A stretch of DNA of 50,576 bases from a virus (taxonomy: Duplodnaviria > Caudoviricetes). The stretch lies in IMG/VR virus record IMGVR_UViG_3300037424_002766, positions 1 to 50,576 of that record, one strand, 5' to 3'. Positions 1 to 34,407 of the stretch are shown piece after piece (the stretch's first letter is position 1; each line of letters begins with the position of its first letter). A program made the translations under genes and the position numbers. The notes beneath the pieces are model-generated. The model was given only the letters and a program-made list of their open reading frames with translations. It had not been told where the DNA came from and searched no databases.

Positions 1-493
1 CCATTGTATAAGAAATCTTTAATCCAGATTTTGCGGCAGCCACAGAAAAACTCTTATACATAGGTTCTGCAAAATCATTTCTACCCCTTACAGGAATTAT
101 CGCACTAACGTCAAATAAATCCATAGCATCATGTACTACAGACACATTATTCTCAAGAACTTTATTGTAGTCAACAGCTCTGCTATCAATAAGTTCAAGT
201 ATTGACTTTGACTCAAATTCATTTTTTGTATTCATATTCAAATATTCTTCTTTGCTTATTTTTTTCTGAGGATAAATTGCTCCATGAGTTATTACTTTAT
301 TGTTTGGCGCTGACTTAACCCCGTTCTCAATTACCGTTATCTTTCCAATTTTCTGAAAATGATTTACTTGAGGAGTTCTTGCTGAATCCCCAAATATCTC
401 TTCTCCAGGCTTTATTGTTACCCTAATGGTTTTACCATCTTTGATATAAAAAATAGAGATAGCAGATTTCGATATGTTTTTAATTTTAAGCAT
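1..493 (-). CDS. Partial glycosyltransferase (GT-A fold) with an N-terminal small 'KIKN...PGE' domain; runs off the window start
   Basis: Not in the ORF track. My translation from ATG 493 gives MLKIKNISKSAISIFYIKDGKTIRVTIKPGEEIFGD...DLFDVSAIIPVRGRNDFAEP, open to the window edge. SAIIPVRGR is a typical first strand of a GT-A domain. The start overlaps the stop of the upstream GT2. Confidence 0.7.
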   Translation of the reverse strand, partial: MLKIKNISKSAISIFYIKDGKTIRVTIKPGEEIFGDSARTPQVNHFQKIGKITVIENGVKSAPNNKVITHGAIYPQKKISKEEYLNMNTKNEFESKSILELIDSRAVDYNKVLENNVSVVHDAMDLFDVSAIIPVRGRNDFAEPMYKSFSVAAAKSGLKISYTM

Positions 494-1235
494 TATAATC
501 TGAAATTCTTTTCAAAGGTTTTTTATTAGAAACCTCTTTGTGAACATCCCATTGCAACTTCTGGTCTACTTTGTCATCGCTAATTGGATTATCTCTGTTG
601 TAAATATAAAGTATCGTATCATTAAATAATGTCTTCTCATGACCAGCCATTTCCATTATTGGAAACATGATTGCTGTATCGTAAGAGCTCTTATAAAAAT
701 CTCCACCACCATCTTTAAGTCCAGAAAAATCTGGGTCCTGCTTCTCCATTGCCTGGTAGAGTCCAGCTCTAAAAGTTCTAAGGTGAGATACTCTAAACGG
801 GGCTTTTCTAACGTTTGCAAATTCCTCTGCAGAATATGCACTTGCAAATCCTCGTCTTCCATCTGTCCAACTTGCCTGCCCATACATAATCCAACAATTC
901 TGGGTTTGATATTGCTCATTAACATATTGAAGAACTTTTTTGTTCGGGAACCAATCATCTCCGTCAAGAATAACAACAATATCTTCTGGGTCACAGTGGT
1001 TCATAATAGCGTTATGAAGATTCTCAAGAGCTGTCTTGCGAACTTCGTTTCTAATAACGACAACTCTTTCATCATCTTTTGGAAGTTTATCATAACTACC
1101 ATCAGTTGACATATCATCAACATAGATAATCTTGTAGTTATCATAATTCTGGGATATTGCACTCGACACGCACTGTTCCAAGAAAGGACCTGGATTGTAG
1201 AATGGAGTTATTATTGTGATTCTATTACTCATCAT
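486..1235 (-). CDS. Glycosyltransferase family 2
   Basis: ITIITPFYN, IIYVDDMSTDGS, DxD-type motif ILDGDD. Confidence 0.9.
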   Translation of the reverse strand: MMSNRITIITPFYNPGPFLEQCVSSAISQNYDNYKIIYVDDMSTDGSYDKLPKDDERVVVIRNEVRKTALENLHNAIMNHCDPEDIVVILDGDDWFPNKKVLQYVNEQYQTQNCWIMYGQASWTDGRRGFASAYSAEEFANVRKAPFRVSHLRTFRAGLYQAMEKQDPDFSGLKDGGGDFYKSSYDTAIMFPIMEMAGHEKTLFNDTILYIYNRDNPISDDKVDQKLQWDVHKEVSNKKPLKRISDYNA

Positions 1236-1854
1236 CTTCCTCTTCTTCAGTTATTTCTATTAAAAGCTTCTCCATATTGGCTATGGAAGTTTTTGTAGAC
1301 GCATCTATTCCATTAACTGGATAGACGCATTCAACTCTTGTGTCACTGCCTCTAACAGGAATAAAATATCTTATTAAATTATCTTCGTTAAATTTCTTTT
1401 TAACGTTATCAATAAATTTTTCAACATCTTCATAATCAAGATTACCGATTGCGATATAAGCAGCAAGAATTGGTTGTTGATTTTCTGTTAAAATATTCTT
1501 ATCCTTGAGTATTAAGTATCTAAGAAATTGTTTTTCCCTTTCTGATTCTGTCAACAAATCTTTATAATTGAGAGTTAATTCTGAACCTGGAATAGGAAGT
1601 TCTCCTTTGAACTTTCCTCTAATTCTCCCAAGGGTCTCCTTGCATAGAGCTACAAAATATTGACCAACCCAGAAGTCTCTAAAGTGTTTTGTTCTCTCAA
1701 TATCGTTTGATTCGTTGAGCATGTTGTATACTTCCTTAGCATTTTCAAACAAATCTTGCATTTGTTCATAATTTATCTCAATATCCACAATTGGTGCTCC
1801 AAGTTGAGATTTAGCTCTTTTAAAAAGAGGGTTTACATAATTAATATTATTCAT
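1225..1854 (-). CDS. Chimeric protein: neck (gp13-like) helical core fused to a portal clip-like segment
   Basis: LGAPIVDIE and IRGKFKGELPIPGSELTLN match the neck gene at 20928. YIAIGNLDYEDVEKFI and YFIPVR match the portal at 32371. Confidence 0.8.
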   Translation of the reverse strand: MNNINYVNPLFKRAKSQLGAPIVDIEINYEQMQDLFENAKEVYNMLNESNDIERTKHFRDFWVGQYFVALCKETLGRIRGKFKGELPIPGSELTLNYKDLLTESEREKQFLRYLILKDKNILTENQQPILAAYIAIGNLDYEDVEKFIDNVKKKFNEDNLIRYFIPVRGSDTRVECVYPVNGIDASTKTSIANMEKLLIEITEEEEDDE

Positions 1855-2704
1855 TTTCTTCTTGTTTTTTAAGTTCTACACCAAGGTTTAAATCCTGATG
1901 ACATCCGTTTACTTTAGAAAAGTCTATCTCTTCTAAATTTATAAAACTCCCATCCAGGAGTTGATTATTCATCTCAAGTCTCATTAATCTGGCACGACTC
2001 TCTCTAAGAGCGATTGTCATCTCGTTATCAAGAGATTCTTGAAGCCTTCCTATTGGAACACCGACAAGTGCGCTGTGTTTATATGACACCATCTTGTTTC
2101 TTGGGAACATTTCAGCGAAGTCAAAAAGAGCCATCTCAAGCTCTTCAACTCCAGTGAACTTAGATTTCTTCACAAGCTTATAGATGTCTGTTCTCCTGAA
2201 GATATGACCATCCATTGCGAATGGGTATCCGAAATCAAGATAGTGAAGGCTCCAATCCCACTTCATAATATCACCACTATACTCCATGTCATGCAACACA
2301 TTGTTTGTTCCAAGTGTATAGCAATTGGTTGTGTTCTCTCCAAGTCTTAAGGAGAAGCAGGCTACATCATCATCCAACTCCAACTGATTGGTAATTTCCT
2401 CAAGTTTAACGCCCCTATATATAATGTCATCATCAAGGAAGAAACAAGAGTATTGTCCATCGGTATTTAATAACCTTAGGACTTGTTCCTTAAAATCTGA
2501 CTCAGCGAAAAAAAAGTTCACACCATTAAACTTTGGATTGTGAACTAATTTACCATACCCCTTATCAAACTCTTCACTTGTGTGACTAACAATCACATTT
2601 AGGTCGAAGACATCTGAAGCATTCTTATTTACGCTATCAAGAAATAACTTAAGTTGTGCAGGTCTGTCTTGGCTAAATACTATTGCATTAATCTTCTGAC
2701 TCAT
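1847..2704 (-). CDS. Putative glycosyltransferase (GT-A-like)
   Basis: N-terminal IVFSQDRPAQL, acidic FFLDDDII motif, position within the GT cluster. Confidence 0.65.
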   Translation of the reverse strand: MSQKINAIVFSQDRPAQLKLFLDSVNKNASDVFDLNVIVSHTSEEFDKGYGKLVHNPKFNGVNFFFAESDFKEQVLRLLNTDGQYSCFFLDDDIIYRGVKLEEITNQLELDDDVACFSLRLGENTTNCYTLGTNNVLHDMEYSGDIMKWDWSLHYLDFGYPFAMDGHIFRRTDIYKLVKKSKFTGVEELEMALFDFAEMFPRNKMVSYKHSALVGVPIGRLQESLDNEMTIALRESRARLMRLEMNNQLLDGSFINLEEIDFSKVNGCHQDLNLGVELKKQEENE

Positions 2705-3041
2705 CCGCTTTAGATTCTGTGTTTTTTTCGATAACAGACATAATCTCAGCCTTTTGTCTTAATCCCACGAATTTATCCACTTGCTCTCCATCTCGGAAGA
2801 CAATTACTGTAGGAATTCCTCTCACTCCAAATTCAGCAGATAAAGATGCATTATCACCGTTATCAACATTTATTTTAAGAACTGTAACATCCTCAACCTC
2901 TTCTGTAATGTCTTCTAAGATAGGTCCAAGCATCTTGCATGGCCCACACCATTCTGCCCAAAAATCTACAAGAACTAATCCTGTTTCAGATTCTATAATT
3001 TGTTGGAATTCATCTTTGTTTGCGTTTATTAACTTTCCCAT
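2688..3041 (-). CDS. trxA: Thioredoxin
   Basis: VDFWAEWCGPCK active site; GVRGIPT cis-Pro loop. Confidence 0.95.
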   Translation of the reverse strand: MGKLINANKDEFQQIIESETGLVLVDFWAEWCGPCKMLGPILEDITEEVEDVTVLKINVDNGDNASLSAEFGVRGIPTVIVFRDGEQVDKFVGLRQKAEIMSVIEKNTESKADESED

Positions 3042-6289: not shown

Positions 6290-6391
6290 ACATAAGTATA
6301 AGTTGTATATTAATAAATAAGCAATTTTTTAGGGAAAGCAAAGGGTTATTGATTTAATAAAAAACTTAATATTTATATAAAAAAGCGTGTT

Positions 6392-9617: not shown

Positions 9618-11942
9618 TTACAACTTAATAGTTGCTTGTTTATCGACAACGGTACAAGAAATATCTTGACCATCAAGTGAAAGTGTCAATTCATTATCCT
9701 CTCTGCTTGCGAATTCTTGGAACCAAGATTTTCCAACGATTGTTAAGAACTTAGCTTTCGCAATCTCAGTCATTAACTGAGTTTTAGTTCCTCTGAAAGA
9801 ATCAGATTTACTGTAAATCCATTCTTCAATCATCTTGTTCTTGGCATCATCTGTAAGACCGCTAAGAGTTTCTTCGAACGCTCTAAATTCCTTCATTGCT
9901 GGAGCAATAAGCAATTCTTTACCTGAAAGAGAACTTTCATCAAGACCTGCTTGGAATTTTTTCTCAAGAGCATCAAAATCTTTCTTAGTTGGAGCTGTAG
10001 ATAAACCTTTGATTTTCACCTCAAGAGTGTTAACCTCGATTTCTTCGTTCATTTTCTCAACTGTACTTGGTGGGTTAAATCCATAGTCTCTAAGACCAAG
10101 AGATTTCAACCATTCCGTAGCCTCAGCTCCATAAAGGTCAAGGAACCCTTTGCTCGCACCATCAAACAATCTCTTCTTGTACTGATTGAACACGTAGTTC
10201 GCAGCTTGCAGTTTGATTAACTCGTGAGATTTTTTGAACAAAGCCTCTGCAGAAAGTGACTTAACCATTTGTCTGTTAATAACAGGCAATTTAGAAAAGT
10301 TAAGAACCATAATTTTACCAGACTCCCAAGTTTCACCTTCAAGAAGTCCATTGGCTTGTAAAGTATCAAATGTTTCTTTATTCAAGCTCACTGGCAGCTC
10401 ATAAGTGTGAATCACACCATCCTTAATGACTGTGTAGTTTCTGAAAATGTGAGTATCAAACTTAGGTCCTAAGCCAAATTCATTATCAGGAAGCTCTACA
10501 TATCCTTTGTACATTACCTGCACAGAAAGATTAGCTCTTGTCTCATTCCATGTAAGGTTTGAGATTGGACTTGAAGGCATTTCTTCGTTATACTGGAACT
10601 TCAATGTTTCAGTTGTGTTCTCACCTACTTCTTGCAACTTAACTTGAAGTGCTGAGATGTCACCAGCCTCAGTAAGTCTCTTGATTTCATCTTTGTCATC
10701 TTGAGTCATATCTGATTTCTTAGCAACCGCTTTTCCCCCAGTTCTCTTGTAACCAAAAGACTCGTGTCTTGGATACCAGACATTCTCATCACTTGACATT
10801 AATGTTTCAAGCATGTCCATAACACAGAAAGCATCTTCAGCTGGCTCAAGGTCTGGGTTGTATCCCTCAGTGTATCTTTGAGATTCATTGTTCATTGCAT
10901 TAATAAACTTAGCCTCAAGCTCATTGATTTTTTGAGTACCGAAAGTATTTGCTTTCTCAGTAATTAAATAAGCATCACCAATAAGCTTCAATATTTCAGA
11001 CACCATGTTGTAGTCGCTACTTCTTGAGTATGCAAAAGCGGCCCCATAAAGTCCAGCAAAAATACTATCAGAAGTATCACCTCTAAGTGTTGCATCAGAA
11101 ATGAAGTTTTCATCACCAATGCAAGTTGCACTTGGAGTTGTCTCAGTAAAGTAAAATAAATTCACTTCACCTTCAACGCTTACGAAAATTTCATTGTCTT
11201 CATTTGGAAGATATGTGATGATGTCACCATCAACAATATTGAACACGATTCCACCATGTGGTGCGTGGTCAAGCTTGATATACCTTCTCTTAACGCTCTG
11301 ACCGTTATTGAACGCTTTCTCTACGTAAGGCTCATATTCGTCAAAGTTTTTGCTGAATGTATGAACTCCACCAACAGCTGTCGCCATTTCATTAAGAAGC
11401 TTTTTGTTGCAATACCAACCATATTCTACGATTGTTGCGCTTGCAAGCTCTTCTTTAACGCCTTCGATTGCGCTGATAATCTCCTTGGTTGACCAACAGT
11501 TATCATAACCATCTGTTAAGAAGAACATTGTGTGAAGCATATCTTTATTCCTTCCTTGGACTCTTTTGATTACTTCCTTAAGTTCAACAAGTGGTTCTTT
11601 AAACGCAGTCAATCCAACTGTGGTTAAATACTTGTCGATAAGGTCTTTGACCTTGTTTAGGCTGATAGCGCTATTTACGTGGTAATCCTCAAGAAGGACT
11701 CCGTACTGACCTCTACCTGAAAACCAGATGATTGTTACCGAATCATTAGGTTTAAGCATTGTAGAAATTTTGTTGTACAGGTCTTTTCGGATTTGAGAAA
11801 GTTCTCCCCACATAGAACCAGAGCAGTCAATGATAAACGTGTGGTGTGCAGCAACTTCTACAGTCTTCGTTTCAGAAGTTTCAGGCTTAACAACCTGATT
11901 GTAGAAAAATTTACCGTTTCCAGCATTCAAATACTTTGACAT
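9618..11942 (-). CDS. von Willebrand factor A (vWA) domain protein
   Basis: MIDAS motif IIDCSGSM and FFLTDG; long C-terminal region of unknown function. Confidence 0.82.
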   Translation of the reverse strand: MSKYLNAGNGKFFYNQVVKPETSETKTVEVAAHHTFIIDCSGSMWGELSQIRKDLYNKISTMLKPNDSVTIIWFSGRGQYGVLLEDYHVNSAISLNKVKDLIDKYLTTVGLTAFKEPLVELKEVIKRVQGRNKDMLHTMFFLTDGYDNCWSTKEIISAIEGVKEELASATIVEYGWYCNKKLLNEMATAVGGVHTFSKNFDEYEPYVEKAFNNGQSVKRRYIKLDHAPHGGIVFNIVDGDIITYLPNEDNEIFVSVEGEVNLFYFTETTPSATCIGDENFISDATLRGDTSDSIFAGLYGAAFAYSRSSDYNMVSEILKLIGDAYLITEKANTFGTQKINELEAKFINAMNNESQRYTEGYNPDLEPAEDAFCVMDMLETLMSSDENVWYPRHESFGYKRTGGKAVAKKSDMTQDDKDEIKRLTEAGDISALQVKLQEVGENTTETLKFQYNEEMPSSPISNLTWNETRANLSVQVMYKGYVELPDNEFGLGPKFDTHIFRNYTVIKDGVIHTYELPVSLNKETFDTLQANGLLEGETWESGKIMVLNFSKLPVINRQMVKSLSAEALFKKSHELIKLQAANYVFNQYKKRLFDGASKGFLDLYGAEATEWLKSLGLRDYGFNPPSTVEKMNEEIEVNTLEVKIKGLSTAPTKKDFDALEKKFQAGLDESSLSGKELLIAPAMKEFRAFEETLSGLTDDAKNKMIEEWIYSKSDSFRGTKTQLMTEIAKAKFLTIVGKSWFQEFASREDNELTLSLDGQDISCTVVDKQATIKL

Positions 11943-14584: not shown

Positions 14585-14695
14585 GATAAGTAATCAATAC
14601 TTTCTAAAATTAGAAAAACCCTATTATCAAGCTTTTTTATTAAACCTACCGAAATTTCGAAAAAATCGAATATTTATAGTTAAACGACACAACAA

Positions 14696-20927: not shown

Positions 20928-22115
20928 ATGAGTGTTTTTTGCGCTGAAGGATGTCTTACAGGAATGACTGTAACAGAGAAAACTCAAATCTTTCGTAGGA
21001 TTAGGAGGAAACTCGGTGCGCCCGTAATGGGAGTTGAACTACTTGATGAACAGATAGAAGAATGTATCTGTGAAGCAATCGAGGAATACTCAGGATATAT
21101 CAACGACTGGGTTTTAAGAAACAGACTTGGAGAGATGCTTGGACTTCCTTCTGAAGTTGATTTTACTTTAAAATATGTTTCTAATTCTCTTTATTTTGAG
21201 AACTCATTTGCAACACAAATTGGAGAACAAATAGGACTTGGAGCTAATGGAACCAGGGAAGTTAAAACTACTTCAATTGCTTTGACTGCTGGAACTCAGG
21301 ATTATACAATACCAGAGGGTAGAGAGGTTCTCGACATCCTTTGGTATACCCCTTCATTTATCAATCTTTTTGGTCTTGACCCTTTCGGTAATAGCAATAT
21401 TGCATTTTCCGAATTTGGCGCTTCATTTGCGGGACATTCTCTTTATCACGTAATGCCTGTATTTGACACAATCATGACTGCTCAAGCTGCTGAACTTAGA
21501 AATAGAGTTAGGGGTTCTGAGTATCATTACATGATTAGGCCAGGAGCTGATGGAACCAAGACACTTAAGCTATTTCCAGTTCCAAGAAATGGAGCAAATA
21601 GTGTTGCTGGACCAAGTTTAGGTATTGGTGGTGGAGCTGGTACTCCAGGAACAGTATTCTATACCTACAGAGATAGAGCAGGATACTACGGAAACCCTAA
21701 TTTCAGCGGAAATACAGCAAATCCAGGATGGACTGCAAGCACATCAACTGAACAAGGAAATGGGCTTGTATCAGGACCTGGTGATGCTCAACTTAATTAT
21801 ATCAATTGGAATCAACTCAACTCAGTTGCACAAACTTGGGTTAAAAAATATGCTCAAGCACTTGCAAAAGAATTGCTTGGCATCGGTATTAGAGGAAAAT
21901 TTAATGGACAACTTCCAATTCCAGGAGCCGAATTAACACTGAATAAAGATGACCTCATCAGTACTGGTAGAGAAGACCAGCAGAGGTTGCTTGACAAACT
22001 TGAGAAAGACCTTGAAGAACTTTCTTATGATAGGATTATGGAAAAACGTGTAGCTGTTCAAGAATCTGTAAACAAAACGCTTTCCTATGTTCCTATGAAA
22101 ATATGGATTTACTAA
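20928..22115 (+). CDS. Neck/head-tail adaptor protein (T4 gp13-like)
   Basis: RRKLGAPVMGVEL.DEQ N-terminus, WVKKYAQALAKE and IPG..LTLN C-terminus; position before gp14/gp15-like genes. Confidence 0.85.
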   Translation: MSVFCAEGCLTGMTVTEKTQIFRRIRRKLGAPVMGVELLDEQIEECICEAIEEYSGYINDWVLRNRLGEMLGLPSEVDFTLKYVSNSLYFENSFATQIGEQIGLGANGTREVKTTSIALTAGTQDYTIPEGREVLDILWYTPSFINLFGLDPFGNSNIAFSEFGASFAGHSLYHVMPVFDTIMTAQAAELRNRVRGSEYHYMIRPGADGTKTLKLFPVPRNGANSVAGPSLGIGGGAGTPGTVFYTYRDRAGYYGNPNFSGNTANPGWTASTSTEQGNGLVSGPGDAQLNYINWNQLNSVAQTWVKKYAQALAKELLGIGIRGKFNGQLPIPGAELTLNKDDLISTGREDQQRLLDKLEKDLEELSYDRIMEKRVAVQESVNKTLSYVPMKIWIY

Positions 22116-32370: not shown

Positions 32371-34407
32371 ATGGCAGCAGAGGACAAAAATAATTTAAGC
32401 ATATTCAGTGGTGTTAATAGTGCCATAAATAAAAATAAGCGTAGGACACCACAGGTACAAAACCCAGGGGTTGTGCAAAATGTTGGTGATGGATTGCGTC
32501 AGCGTCAAGGTAATAATATTGAGCACGTACAACAGCAGTTTTTAGACTGGCAAGTTAACAAGATTGCTCATGACCTTTATACAAGAACAATCTACTACGA
32601 TACTGATAGGGTTAATGCCTATCAAGATTTTAGAGCGATGGATATGTCTCCAGAAATTGCGGCAGCTCTCAATATAATGAGAGATGAATGTATTACAAGG
32701 GGTGAAAAAGGAAAAATACTTGATATTTTCTCAGAGAACTCAAGAGTTAAAACTATTCTTGAAGACCTTTTTTACAATAGACTTGACATTGATTTTGCGC
32801 TTAAATTATGGATTAGAGACTTATTGAAATATGGAGATTTCTTTTTGCAACTTCACATAGATAAAGATGAGGGTATCTATGGAGTTATGGCTCTTCCTTC
32901 TGAAGAAATTCATAGAGAAGAAGGGTTTGAGGGAAGAACTGATGATGTTCGATTTAGGTGGGAGTCAACTGGCGATTATTTTGAGGATTGGCAAGTTGCT
33001 CATTTCAGACTTCTTGAGGACACAAGAAAACTTCCTTATGGACGTTCTATTCTTGACCCAGCAAGAAAGCTTTGGAAACAACTGCAGTTGGCAGAAGATT
33101 CAATGCTTGTATATCGTATCACAAGAGCTCCAGAGAGAAGAGTATTTTATATTGATGTAGGTAATCTTGAGCACGCAGACGTTGCTCAATTTATACAGCA
33201 ATTTCAAATTCAGCTTAAGAAGCAGCCGATAGTTGACCAAAGAACTGGTAATATCAACTTGAAGTATAATCCAATGAATGTAACTGAGGATTATTTTATT
33301 CCCATGAGAGCTGATAGGTCATCAAGAATTGAGACACTTCCAGGTGCTTCAAATCTTGGGGATATTCAAGATATTGAGTACTTACAAAACAAATTATTTG
33401 CATCACTTCAAGTTCCTAAGAATTACTTGAACTATGGAGAGTCATTGCCAGGAGGTTCAACACTCTCTCAACAAGACCTTAGATTTGCTCGTACAATTAA
33501 CACGATTCAGCAAGCTGTACTTGCTGAGTTAAAGAGAATCGCTAATATCCACCTTTATTTTAATGGATTTAAGGATGAGATAGATAACTTTACACTTACT
33601 CTAAACAATCCGTCTACTCAACAAGAATTGTTGAAATTAGAGACAATGAAGGCGAGGCTTGAGGTGTTTAAGGAAATGTTCTCGGCTGAGGCAACATCTC
33701 CAGTATCTTATGTTTGGGCAATGGAAAATATTCTTGGATTCTCAAAGAATGAAATTAAACTTATTCTTAAACAGAAGAAGGTTGAGAAAAAAATATTTGC
33801 TGAGATTGATAGCGCTGTTGAAATGTACAAGAAAATTGGCCTTTTCAGAGACCTTGATGACAAGTATGAGATTGAAGGTGCAGAAGAAATGATGAAGGCA
33901 CAACAAGCGGGTGAATCTGGTGGAGAATCTGGTGGAGAATCTGGCGGAGGCGGAGGCTTTGGTGGAGGATTTGGTGGAGCAGAAGAGCTTGACCTTGGAG
34001 ATGAAACTGGTGGAGCAGAGGCAGGGGCAGAGGCAGGAGCTGAATCGGCCCCTGAAGAAGCAGCTCCTATAGCTGAATCTAAATTTAGAAATGCTCAAAA
34101 AATATCTGACAACTATGTTGATAGAATGTTGAATGAGTTGCTTGGAGCAGATGAATCTAAGAACAAGTCAAGTGTTGAGGACAATGCTTTAATCAAGAGA
34201 AGTAATTCCATGAAAATGGAATCTCAAAGGTTGATTAATAGCATGAATAACGGTCTTGCAAAAAGAGGTGTCAAGCAAATGATGCAAGAAGAAATTATAC
34301 ATGTACCAAGTTCAAATCCTCTCGTTGATGGTTCTGAGAAACTCACTAAAGATAGTGACCAATTGGCAAATGAAATTGAAAAATTCTTGAGAAATAGGAG
34401 AAAGTAA
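32371..34407 (+). CDS. gp20: Portal protein (T4 gp20-like)
   Basis: YRITRAPERRVFYIDVGNL, EDYFIP.R, IETLPG.SNL, DIEYLQNKLF.SL.VP; G/E/A low-complexity C-terminal linker. Confidence 0.96.
   Translation: MAAEDKNNLSIFSGVNSAINKNKRRTPQVQNPGVVQNVGDGLRQRQGNNIEHVQQQFLDWQVNKIAHDLYTRTIYYDTDRVNAYQDFRAMDMSPEIAAALNIMRDECITRGEKGKILDIFSENSRVKTILEDLFYNRLDIDFALKLWIRDLLKYGDFFLQLHIDKDEGIYGVMALPSEEIHREEGFEGRTDDVRFRWESTGDYFEDWQVAHFRLLEDTRKLPYGRSILDPARKLWKQLQLAEDSMLVYRITRAPERRVFYIDVGNLEHADVAQFIQQFQIQLKKQPIVDQRTGNINLKYNPMNVTEDYFIPMRADRSSRIETLPGASNLGDIQDIEYLQNKLFASLQVPKNYLNYGESLPGGSTLSQQDLRFARTINTIQQAVLAELKRIANIHLYFNGFKDEIDNFTLTLNNPSTQQELLKLETMKARLEVFKEMFSAEATSPVSYVWAMENILGFSKNEIKLILKQKKVEKKIFAEIDSAVEMYKKIGLFRDLDDKYEIEGAEEMMKAQQAGESGGESGGESGGGGGFGGGFGGAEELDLGDETGGAEAGAEAGAESAPEEAAPIAESKFRNAQKISDNYVDRMLNELLGADESKNKSSVEDNALIKRSNSMKMESQRLINSMNNGLAKRGVKQMMQEEIIHVPSSNPLVDGSEKLTKDSDQLANEIEKFLRNRRK

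Follow-up and report, generated by a model that had tools for sequence, protein, structure and literature searches.

The accessible text of two reports on phage T4 describes the head-tail adaptor gp13 as a four-helix bundle, domain I (residues 3–51 and 239–300), with two gp14-binding loops, accompanied by a swing domain, a fibritin domain and a C-terminal arm (PMC12929629, PMC12929587). On the same accounts, the arm inserts between clip helices of the portal, and the swing domain touches clip helix 295–309 and hairpin 311–325 (PMC12929629, PMC12929587). The clip itself is assigned to residues 279–358 of the T4 portal, with a three-stranded sheet shared between adjacent subunits, in the available part of the portal study (PMC4493910).

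We analyzed a 50.6-kb stretch of a T4-like phage, about 18% complete according to CheckV (henceforth the window), that contains capsid, neck, tail, terminase and portal genes. Among these are an intact gp13-type neck adaptor of 395 residues in the virion module (20928..22115, plus strand; phrog_211; T4 gp13) and an intact T4-type portal (32371..34407, plus strand; PF07230, E 6e-78; alignment to T4 gp20). Alongside both, the phage keeps a small extra gene (1225..1854, minus strand) for a 209-residue protein in which a gp13-type adaptor core is followed by a hairpin-less portal clip and a C-terminal helix. The start and stop of this reading frame overlap both adjoining genes. When compared with the 52 open reading frames of the window by BLASTP, the fusion matched only two at E < 0.09, namely gp13 (E 2e-13, with a second N-terminal stretch at E 0.001) and the portal (E 0.001). 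Because defining features of each parent family fail, the protein is a member of neither. Its AlphaFold model (pLDDT 75) has T4 gp13 as the top structural match (9lu4_D, Z 8.6, rmsd 2.9, 86 residues aligned), the sole chain with Z > 8 among 48,161. Foldseek with the full model against the PDB gave nothing at E 0.001, and a local copy of Pfam named no family for P0001.

We sought the same fusion in related genomes, as had been proposed, and found it: a profile search with the fusion family gave 246 proteins, and from the 120 listed we aligned 67 complete or near-complete members of the same layout (counted at 90% clustering), leaving out two that are cut within the clip. Fusion, intact gp13 and portal occur together in two IMG/VR records, as they do in the window, and none of 50,697 cultured phage records covers 80% of the fusion protein. 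An assembly artefact is ruled out by these 67 homologues with the same junction, which come from several independent collections, and by the conserved gene order. Contigs from sequencing runs were also placed on the region, and none spans the fusion gene; no RNA run was among those listed for it. One contig of run X1 joins back 582 bases at the edge of the covered stretch (window 400–981; side 33 letters), which is likely due to the edge or to a repeat. Nine fusions (P0045, P0046, P0050, P0054, P0056, P0059, P0061, P0064 and P0075) end in a further domain of about 60 residues, whose strand pattern is SH3/Tudor-like in our own reading; ProQ_C was matched at E 0.005 in one of them, with Atlas below 0.9. 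Atlas searches in general returned leads below 0.9 or nothing.

Purifying selection acts on the fusion, although its sequence drifts apart far faster than those of the true gp13 and portal. Its identity to the homologues in two related genomes (G001 and G002) is 47% and 35%, compared with 86% and 89% for gp13 and 82% and 90% for the portal in the same genome pairs, and it is the least conserved well-covered gene in six of seven genome comparisons. A pseudogene is ruled out by dN/dS values below 1 in all 12 least saturated pairs (0.21–0.57, the higher values lying near saturation). The six least saturated pairs give 0.21–0.33, pairs near saturation reach at most 0.57, and the flanking glycosyltransferase (GT) genes show 0.06–0.27. 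The clip helix is the least conserved part (mean consensus share 0.38), and the strand and core positions are the most conserved (0.67–0.82), a pattern that we read as a retained fold with a surface probably free to vary.

To assign the N-terminal half, HHalign of the fusion family was run against 79 full-length gp13 sequences. Residues 7–46 (1717..1836, minus strand) correspond to the first two helices of gp13 domain I and include an LGAP loop at the position of T4 gp14-binding loop 17–31 (P 97.0; T4 gp13 10–46). Residues 57–115 (1510..1686, minus strand) correspond to the last two helices and include the adaptor loop, T4 266–279 (P 99.7; T4 gp13 237–295). The earlier note had correctly reported the gp13 middle as missing: about 240 residues (approximately 58–298), which in T4 form the swing and fibritin-binding domains, are replaced by a short variable linker of ten residues, 47–56 (1687..1716, minus strand). 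Accordingly, the span from A39 to W62 measures 24–27 residues in 67/67 fusions versus about 250 in gp13. Swing domain II, domain III and the arm at the C terminus that binds the portal are all missing, and the deleted parts coincide with known T4 domain borders. The gp13 alignment stops at fusion residue 115, from where the clip continues the chain. Against the PDB, the fusion-family profile finds T4 gp13 only (E 3e-10). Both the sequence profile and the model contain the complete four-helix domain I, and the two gp14-binding loops (T4 17–31 and 266–279) are present by sequence; the adaptor loop has 17–19 residues in 62 of the 67 fusions and is shortened in five, and R79 is invariant in the family. 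In a tree, the fusion cores group apart from the gp13 of their own clade (98/90 branch; 89 columns, bootstrap unsettled); the full-length gp13 rows of this tree were fetched with a motif favouring other clades. A recent duplication of the phage's own gp13 is not backed by this short tree.

For the C-terminal half, HHalign against 40 portals aligned fusion residues 107–179 with portal residues 242–325 (P 96.5, E 9e-10). Residues 107–115 alone align with the end of the first portal stem helix, and the C-terminal helix matches the portal stem with low confidence. The clip-derived segment, residues 129–179 (1318..1470, minus strand), is a strand-helix-strand-strand unit with its hairpin deleted and with the family motif EC(I/V)(Y/N)P. 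It is followed by a C-terminal helix, residues 185–207 (1234..1302, minus strand), that is common to free clip proteins and is predicted to complete a compact domain. The portal-clip match claimed for the C-terminal part of the fusion stands in that a clip is present, but it covers only about residues 129–179 without the hairpin, and the last 25 residues are a helix. The wing, the crown and the two stem helices of the portal are not present. A hidden Markov model of residues 126–180 ranked the window portal first after the family members among 3,357 open reading frames (E 5e-8). The clip span is 28–30 residues in 67/67 fusions versus 46 in 40/40 portals, that is, 16–18 residues shorter, and the gap maps to residues 312–329 of T4 gp20 in the alignment (hairpin 311–325). 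Within the intact window portal, the clip lies at about 33142–33345 (plus strand), and the hairpin absent from the fusion corresponds to about 33226–33279. The clip-tip GN(L/M) motif is represented by G137 in 47 and N138 in 56 of the 67 fusions, and R/K173 occurs in all 67. Portal_T4 is matched by 1/67 fusions, and no portal was found at E 10 when the clip halves were compared with PDB sequences. Together, the three profile matches confirm the chimeric anatomy of gp13 ends and portal clip that the earlier note had described; its alignments and coordinates were right, and a recount of the two printed stretches agrees with its 27 identities in 41 positions with gp13. As to the portals themselves, one open frame of 1,107 residues (G002:C1, about 54,800–58,100; L089, L191) probably contains an intein, and several others span 2.8–2.9 kb.

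When modelled alone, the clip domain forms a compact strand-helix-strand-strand-helix unit (pLDDT 78) with strands paired within one chain; as this is a monomer model, the strands may yet be swapped between chains. AlphaFold monomers often close swapped sheets, and the closed clip may be a modelling effect. With this reservation, the fusion clip is predicted to close on itself, helped by the extra helix, rather than to exchange strands with an adjacent chain. Its Foldseek matches among viral models are largely T4-type portals at about 17 Å rmsd, a deviation that would be expected of a closed form, and VIA-align of the domain gave no portal among the 50 rows listed, a negative without bearing on the assignment. 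The best solved-fold matches are tautomerase/MIF-like (Z 5.2). These matches, together with the presence of C176 in 66/67 fusions and the conservation of Y178 and P179, all three absent from portals, and of EC-x-(Y/N)-P in 55/59 free clips, would suit a small domain exapted for some unrelated function, such as thiol- or metal-based activity of the EC motif beside the thioredoxin of the operon, with portal ancestry being incidental. We consider this explanation unlikely, as Z 5.2 is within chance for that search and as it leaves unexplained why the fused partner is the adaptor core, the clip's own virion neighbour.

With the swing domain, the arm and the clip hairpin lost, the elements through which gp13 and the portal touch in T4 are gone from the fusion. 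This qualifies the proposal that one polypeptide mimics both sides of the interface: parts of both partners are present, but the T4 contact elements (the gp13 C-terminal arm, and the swing domain on the hairpin) are missing, and the two halves also occur alone.

A search with the clip half gave 779 clusters at 50% identity, the lower ranks of which may include portals. Among the best 150 of these 779, nine have the gp13 core and 141 do not; of the latter, 126 are at most 135 residues long (median 95), and the order clip first, core second was not found among the same 150. Free clips are thus far commoner than the fusion. The 57 clip loci in IMG/VR comprise 48 distinct open reading frames, 45 of them below 150 residues, and two contigs carry two clip copies each. 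A profile built from free clips only ranks fusions first and portals next among 7,387 open reading frames and reaches T4 gp20 284–310 weakly (E 0.63); the clip is closest to the lineage's own portals. The family phrog_213 is matched by 4/111 free clips. At one locus (L243:4001–4255) an 84-residue free clip occupies the slot of the fusion, with the same GT genes on either side and the same gene order as in the window, and no trace of the gp13 core was found there. Core-only gp13 paralogues of 112–118 residues, lacking arm and clip, also exist (L004:9989–10336, P0085 and P0086), and the one at L004 stands before a gene whose distant homologues come after a free clip in nine other loci. Because a free clip fills that slot at L243, the constant, basic unit is the clip, and since both halves occur alone, the fusion is one arrangement of two free modules. 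The clip-domain tree (seven changes, one forced) is too short to order fusion and loss. Further architectures include a tandem double clip of 154 residues (P0258), a clip inside a 374-residue protein of a different kind (L256:3428–4552), and a gp13 core behind an N-terminal segment that we read as similar to a ribbon-helix-helix DNA-binding domain (P0115 and P0130; RepB-RCR_reg E 0.08).

These observations also bear on the idea that twelve copies form an adaptor ring with its own clip, an alternative neck that would bind gp14 and cap headless tails or necks. Domain I, the ring-maker in T4, is complete, and the fusion point lies where the last helix of gp13 meets the clip. Nevertheless, such a ring is very improbable given the fast divergence of the protein, the majority of clip-only proteins in the family, the loss of the hairpin and the closed form in which the clip is modelled.

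The operon starts with a thioredoxin gene (2688..3041, minus strand; PF00085, E 1e-29), followed by a gene for a 285-residue protein that is GT-like by a DDD motif in our own reading and has no Pfam match (1847..2704, minus strand), by the fusion, and by a GT2 glycosyltransferase gene (486..1235, minus strand; PF00535, E 1e-19). Across 13 loci, the fusion comes after the same GT-like gene in 11/11 with upstream DNA and after the thioredoxin in 9/9; the same GT2 gene follows directly in 10/13 and behind an inserted cassette in two. Endonuclease genes, which we take from their motif to be GIY-YIG-like, are inserted in the GT operon beside the fusion at L095:5699–6744, L098:1655–2296 and L100:1925–2560. 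Elsewhere in the window, a 774-residue protein (9618–11942, minus strand), 73–92% conserved in relatives, contains a motif FIIDCSGSM that is presumably vWA-like. No trimmed paralogues of the two genes after gp13 were found in four records, each 18–24% complete.

This gene order invites the explanation that virions are glycosylated by the adjoining GTs, which the fusion would recruit to the neck or the portal vertex. In its favour, the window and every locus with flanks show the fusion enclosed by two GT-type genes whose ends overlap with its start and stop, and in a second lineage a free clip (nine loci) or the core-only protein at L004 stands 5' of a related GT operon. On the other hand, a common gene order may simply be inherited and need not reflect a functional link, the sequence is without a GT-binding feature, and the linkage that holds for fusion loci with flanks extends to only 18 of 57 clip-bearing viral loci, with no GT-like gene within 4 kb in the other 39 (blastp with ten GT-like queries; some may be missed). 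GT recruitment, which the earlier note had listed among three possible functions, is weakened by this count, and we judge it improbable.

As to host and timing, a Shine–Dalgarno-like word precedes 1/42 ATG starts versus 48/389 internal ATGs, and half of the window starts have A at –3. In the accessible part of a published survey this start-site pattern fits Bacteroidota (PMC6847099). The nearest cultured portals belong to a Microcystis phage and to Flavobacterium phages and reach only about 40% identity, and we lean toward a Bacteroidota host without counting this as a result. The word TATTTAT, which on the opposite strand reads as TATAAATA, the late promoter of T4, occurs on the sense strand 10–32 nt before 18 window starts, many of them of virion genes (for example at 14671, 16814, 20607, 30554 and 32350 on the plus strand, and at 6313 and 29065 on the minus strand), and is a candidate late promoter of this lineage. 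The fusion operon has a copy at 77 nt only, conserved in eight relatives.

In the available part of a recent preprint, the portal is reported to be sensed by the bacterial STAND sensors Avs4 and Avs11, and the portal adaptor by Avs12; what Avs sensors bind are conserved cores, with extensions being ignored, and their targets appear to be monomers (bioRxiv 10.64898/2026.01.04.697583). The complex of Avs11 with the portal could not be modelled in that work (bioRxiv 10.64898/2026.01.04.697583). The reading we favour, although we hold it at somewhat less than an even chance, is that the fusion is a soluble, non-virion fold mimic that sequesters the host's sensors for portal and adaptor. The product would be a look-alike of adaptor core and portal clip, probably monomeric, staying outside the virion and expressed ahead of or alongside the true gp13 and portal. 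It would bind, without triggering them, STAND/Avs-type receptors that recognise portal and adaptor monomers by shape. The joining of the adaptor core to the clip, which would place two baits on a single chain, may have happened once in this clade, and the core may have been lost again at least once.

We favour the decoy because the fold is kept, the surface appears free, the assembly contacts are removed, the design is modular and widespread, and sensors for both parts have been reported. Specifically, the parts that tether the T4 proteins to the particle (swing and fibritin domains, C-terminal arm and clip hairpin 311–325) are all deleted, and the low conservation on the clip helix would be easier to reconcile with a partner that reads shape than with the conserved proteins of the phage itself. 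The fast divergence at dN/dS of 0.21–0.33 counts for the decoy, as do the compact model of the clip domain and the behaviour of the halves as mobile modules, with 779 clip clusters, core-only proteins, duplicate clips and varied neighbourhoods. Traits of anti-defence decoys that the fusion displays, namely small size, fast evolution and resemblance to a known trigger, are suggestive only. Against the decoy, a stripped core could just as well activate a fold sensor instead of blocking it; the operon is stable (same upstream gene in 11/11 loci), unlike many anti-defence genes; and the gp14-binding loops are well conserved, which suggests that a contact with neck proteins has been kept. Avs4 is also said to contact the portal stem and wing besides the clip, and, with no model of Avs11 on the portal in the preprint, a clip alone may not suffice for binding. 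More broadly, large T4-like phages may have built a class of immune decoys from their own virion cores, comprising a self-closed clip in hundreds of families, a bare core and the two-in-one fusion, which would blind two different bacterial fold sensors at once; we regard this wider claim as possible and hold it with less confidence than the decoy itself.

The conserved loops fit better with an assembly chaperone or brake, in which the closed clip, as a single-chain copy of the inter-helix groove, would hold gp13 or gp14 arms (or the terminase) until the head is full. The fused core would dock sideways on gp13 or on gp14, and the protein would guard against misassembly as host Hfq does for T4. 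In T4, as described in the accessible part of one report, the arm of gp13 enters between two clip helices, as does that of gp14 in misassembled particles, an error that Hfq prevents (PMC12929587). In the model of the fusion one sheet carries two helices, the family has largely retained the clip-tip GN(L/M) motif as well as the gp14-binding loops, and a TerL homologue lies within 4 kb in three free-clip loci. However, a partner of proteins conserved at 82–90% should not drift to 35–47%, and the core groups apart from the gp13 of its own clade (98/90 branch, short alignment). The gene also lies outside the head-neck module, in an operon without TATTTAT at the usual 10–32 nt (nearest copy at 77 nt), the adaptor loop is shortened in 5/67 fusions, and the core is absent at L243. 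We therefore rate this explanation as rather doubtful. Among the three functions of the earlier note, the decoy fits best, and the packaging or neck-joining regulator remains a close rival.

The portal and the adaptor are among the conserved phage parts sensed by bacterial STAND receptors, and phage evasion of such fold-reading sensors is largely open. Widespread, unannotated clip mimics of about 90 residues, some fused to an adaptor core, are small and easily expressed candidates for existing Avs toxicity assays. If the fusion is instead an assembly factor, it would be a head-neck chaperone of a new type, made from the interface that it guards. Either way, some hundreds of "hypothetical" phage protein clusters receive a structural label.

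The moraphages are large aquatic phages with core GTs, and the single "neck" passage in the available text about them is a gene-list entry (PMC12619734). A search of the literature, with most subscription journals outside its reach, found no published description of the fusion or of free clips; both parents, gp13 and the portal clip, are known, and the fusion and the free-clip family are apparently undescribed. The phage anti-defence protein DSAD1 reportedly occupies the sensor site of DSR2, and the likeness to our fusion would lie in the proposed mode of action only: there is no sequence link, and the bait in the fusion is recognizably taken out of the virion proteins that are sensed. Small single-domain adaptors (SPP1 gp15, HK97 gp6 and P22 gp4) share the bare helical bundle and, according to the accessible part of one T4 report, have the same fold as T4 domain I (PMC12929629). 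Unlike the fusion, which is a second copy with a clip in that place, they are working adaptors that keep their portal-binding tail. With T4 gp13 (Ad2; phrog_211; PF26809; PDB 9lu4, 9mkb) the fusion shares the four-helix domain I and both gp14-binding loops; it differs in lacking the swing domain, the fibritin domain and the C-terminal arm, and in being an extra copy outside the neck module that evolves much faster. With the clip of the T4 gp20-type portal (PF07230; PDB 3ja7, 6uzc; residues 279–358) it shares the strand-helix-strand-strand order and the Y-x-x-x-G-N and Y-F-I-P...R-I-E motifs, whereas its hairpin is deleted, the wing, crown and full stem are missing, the EC-x-(Y/N)-P motif and a helix are added, and the domain is predicted to be closed rather than strand-swapped.
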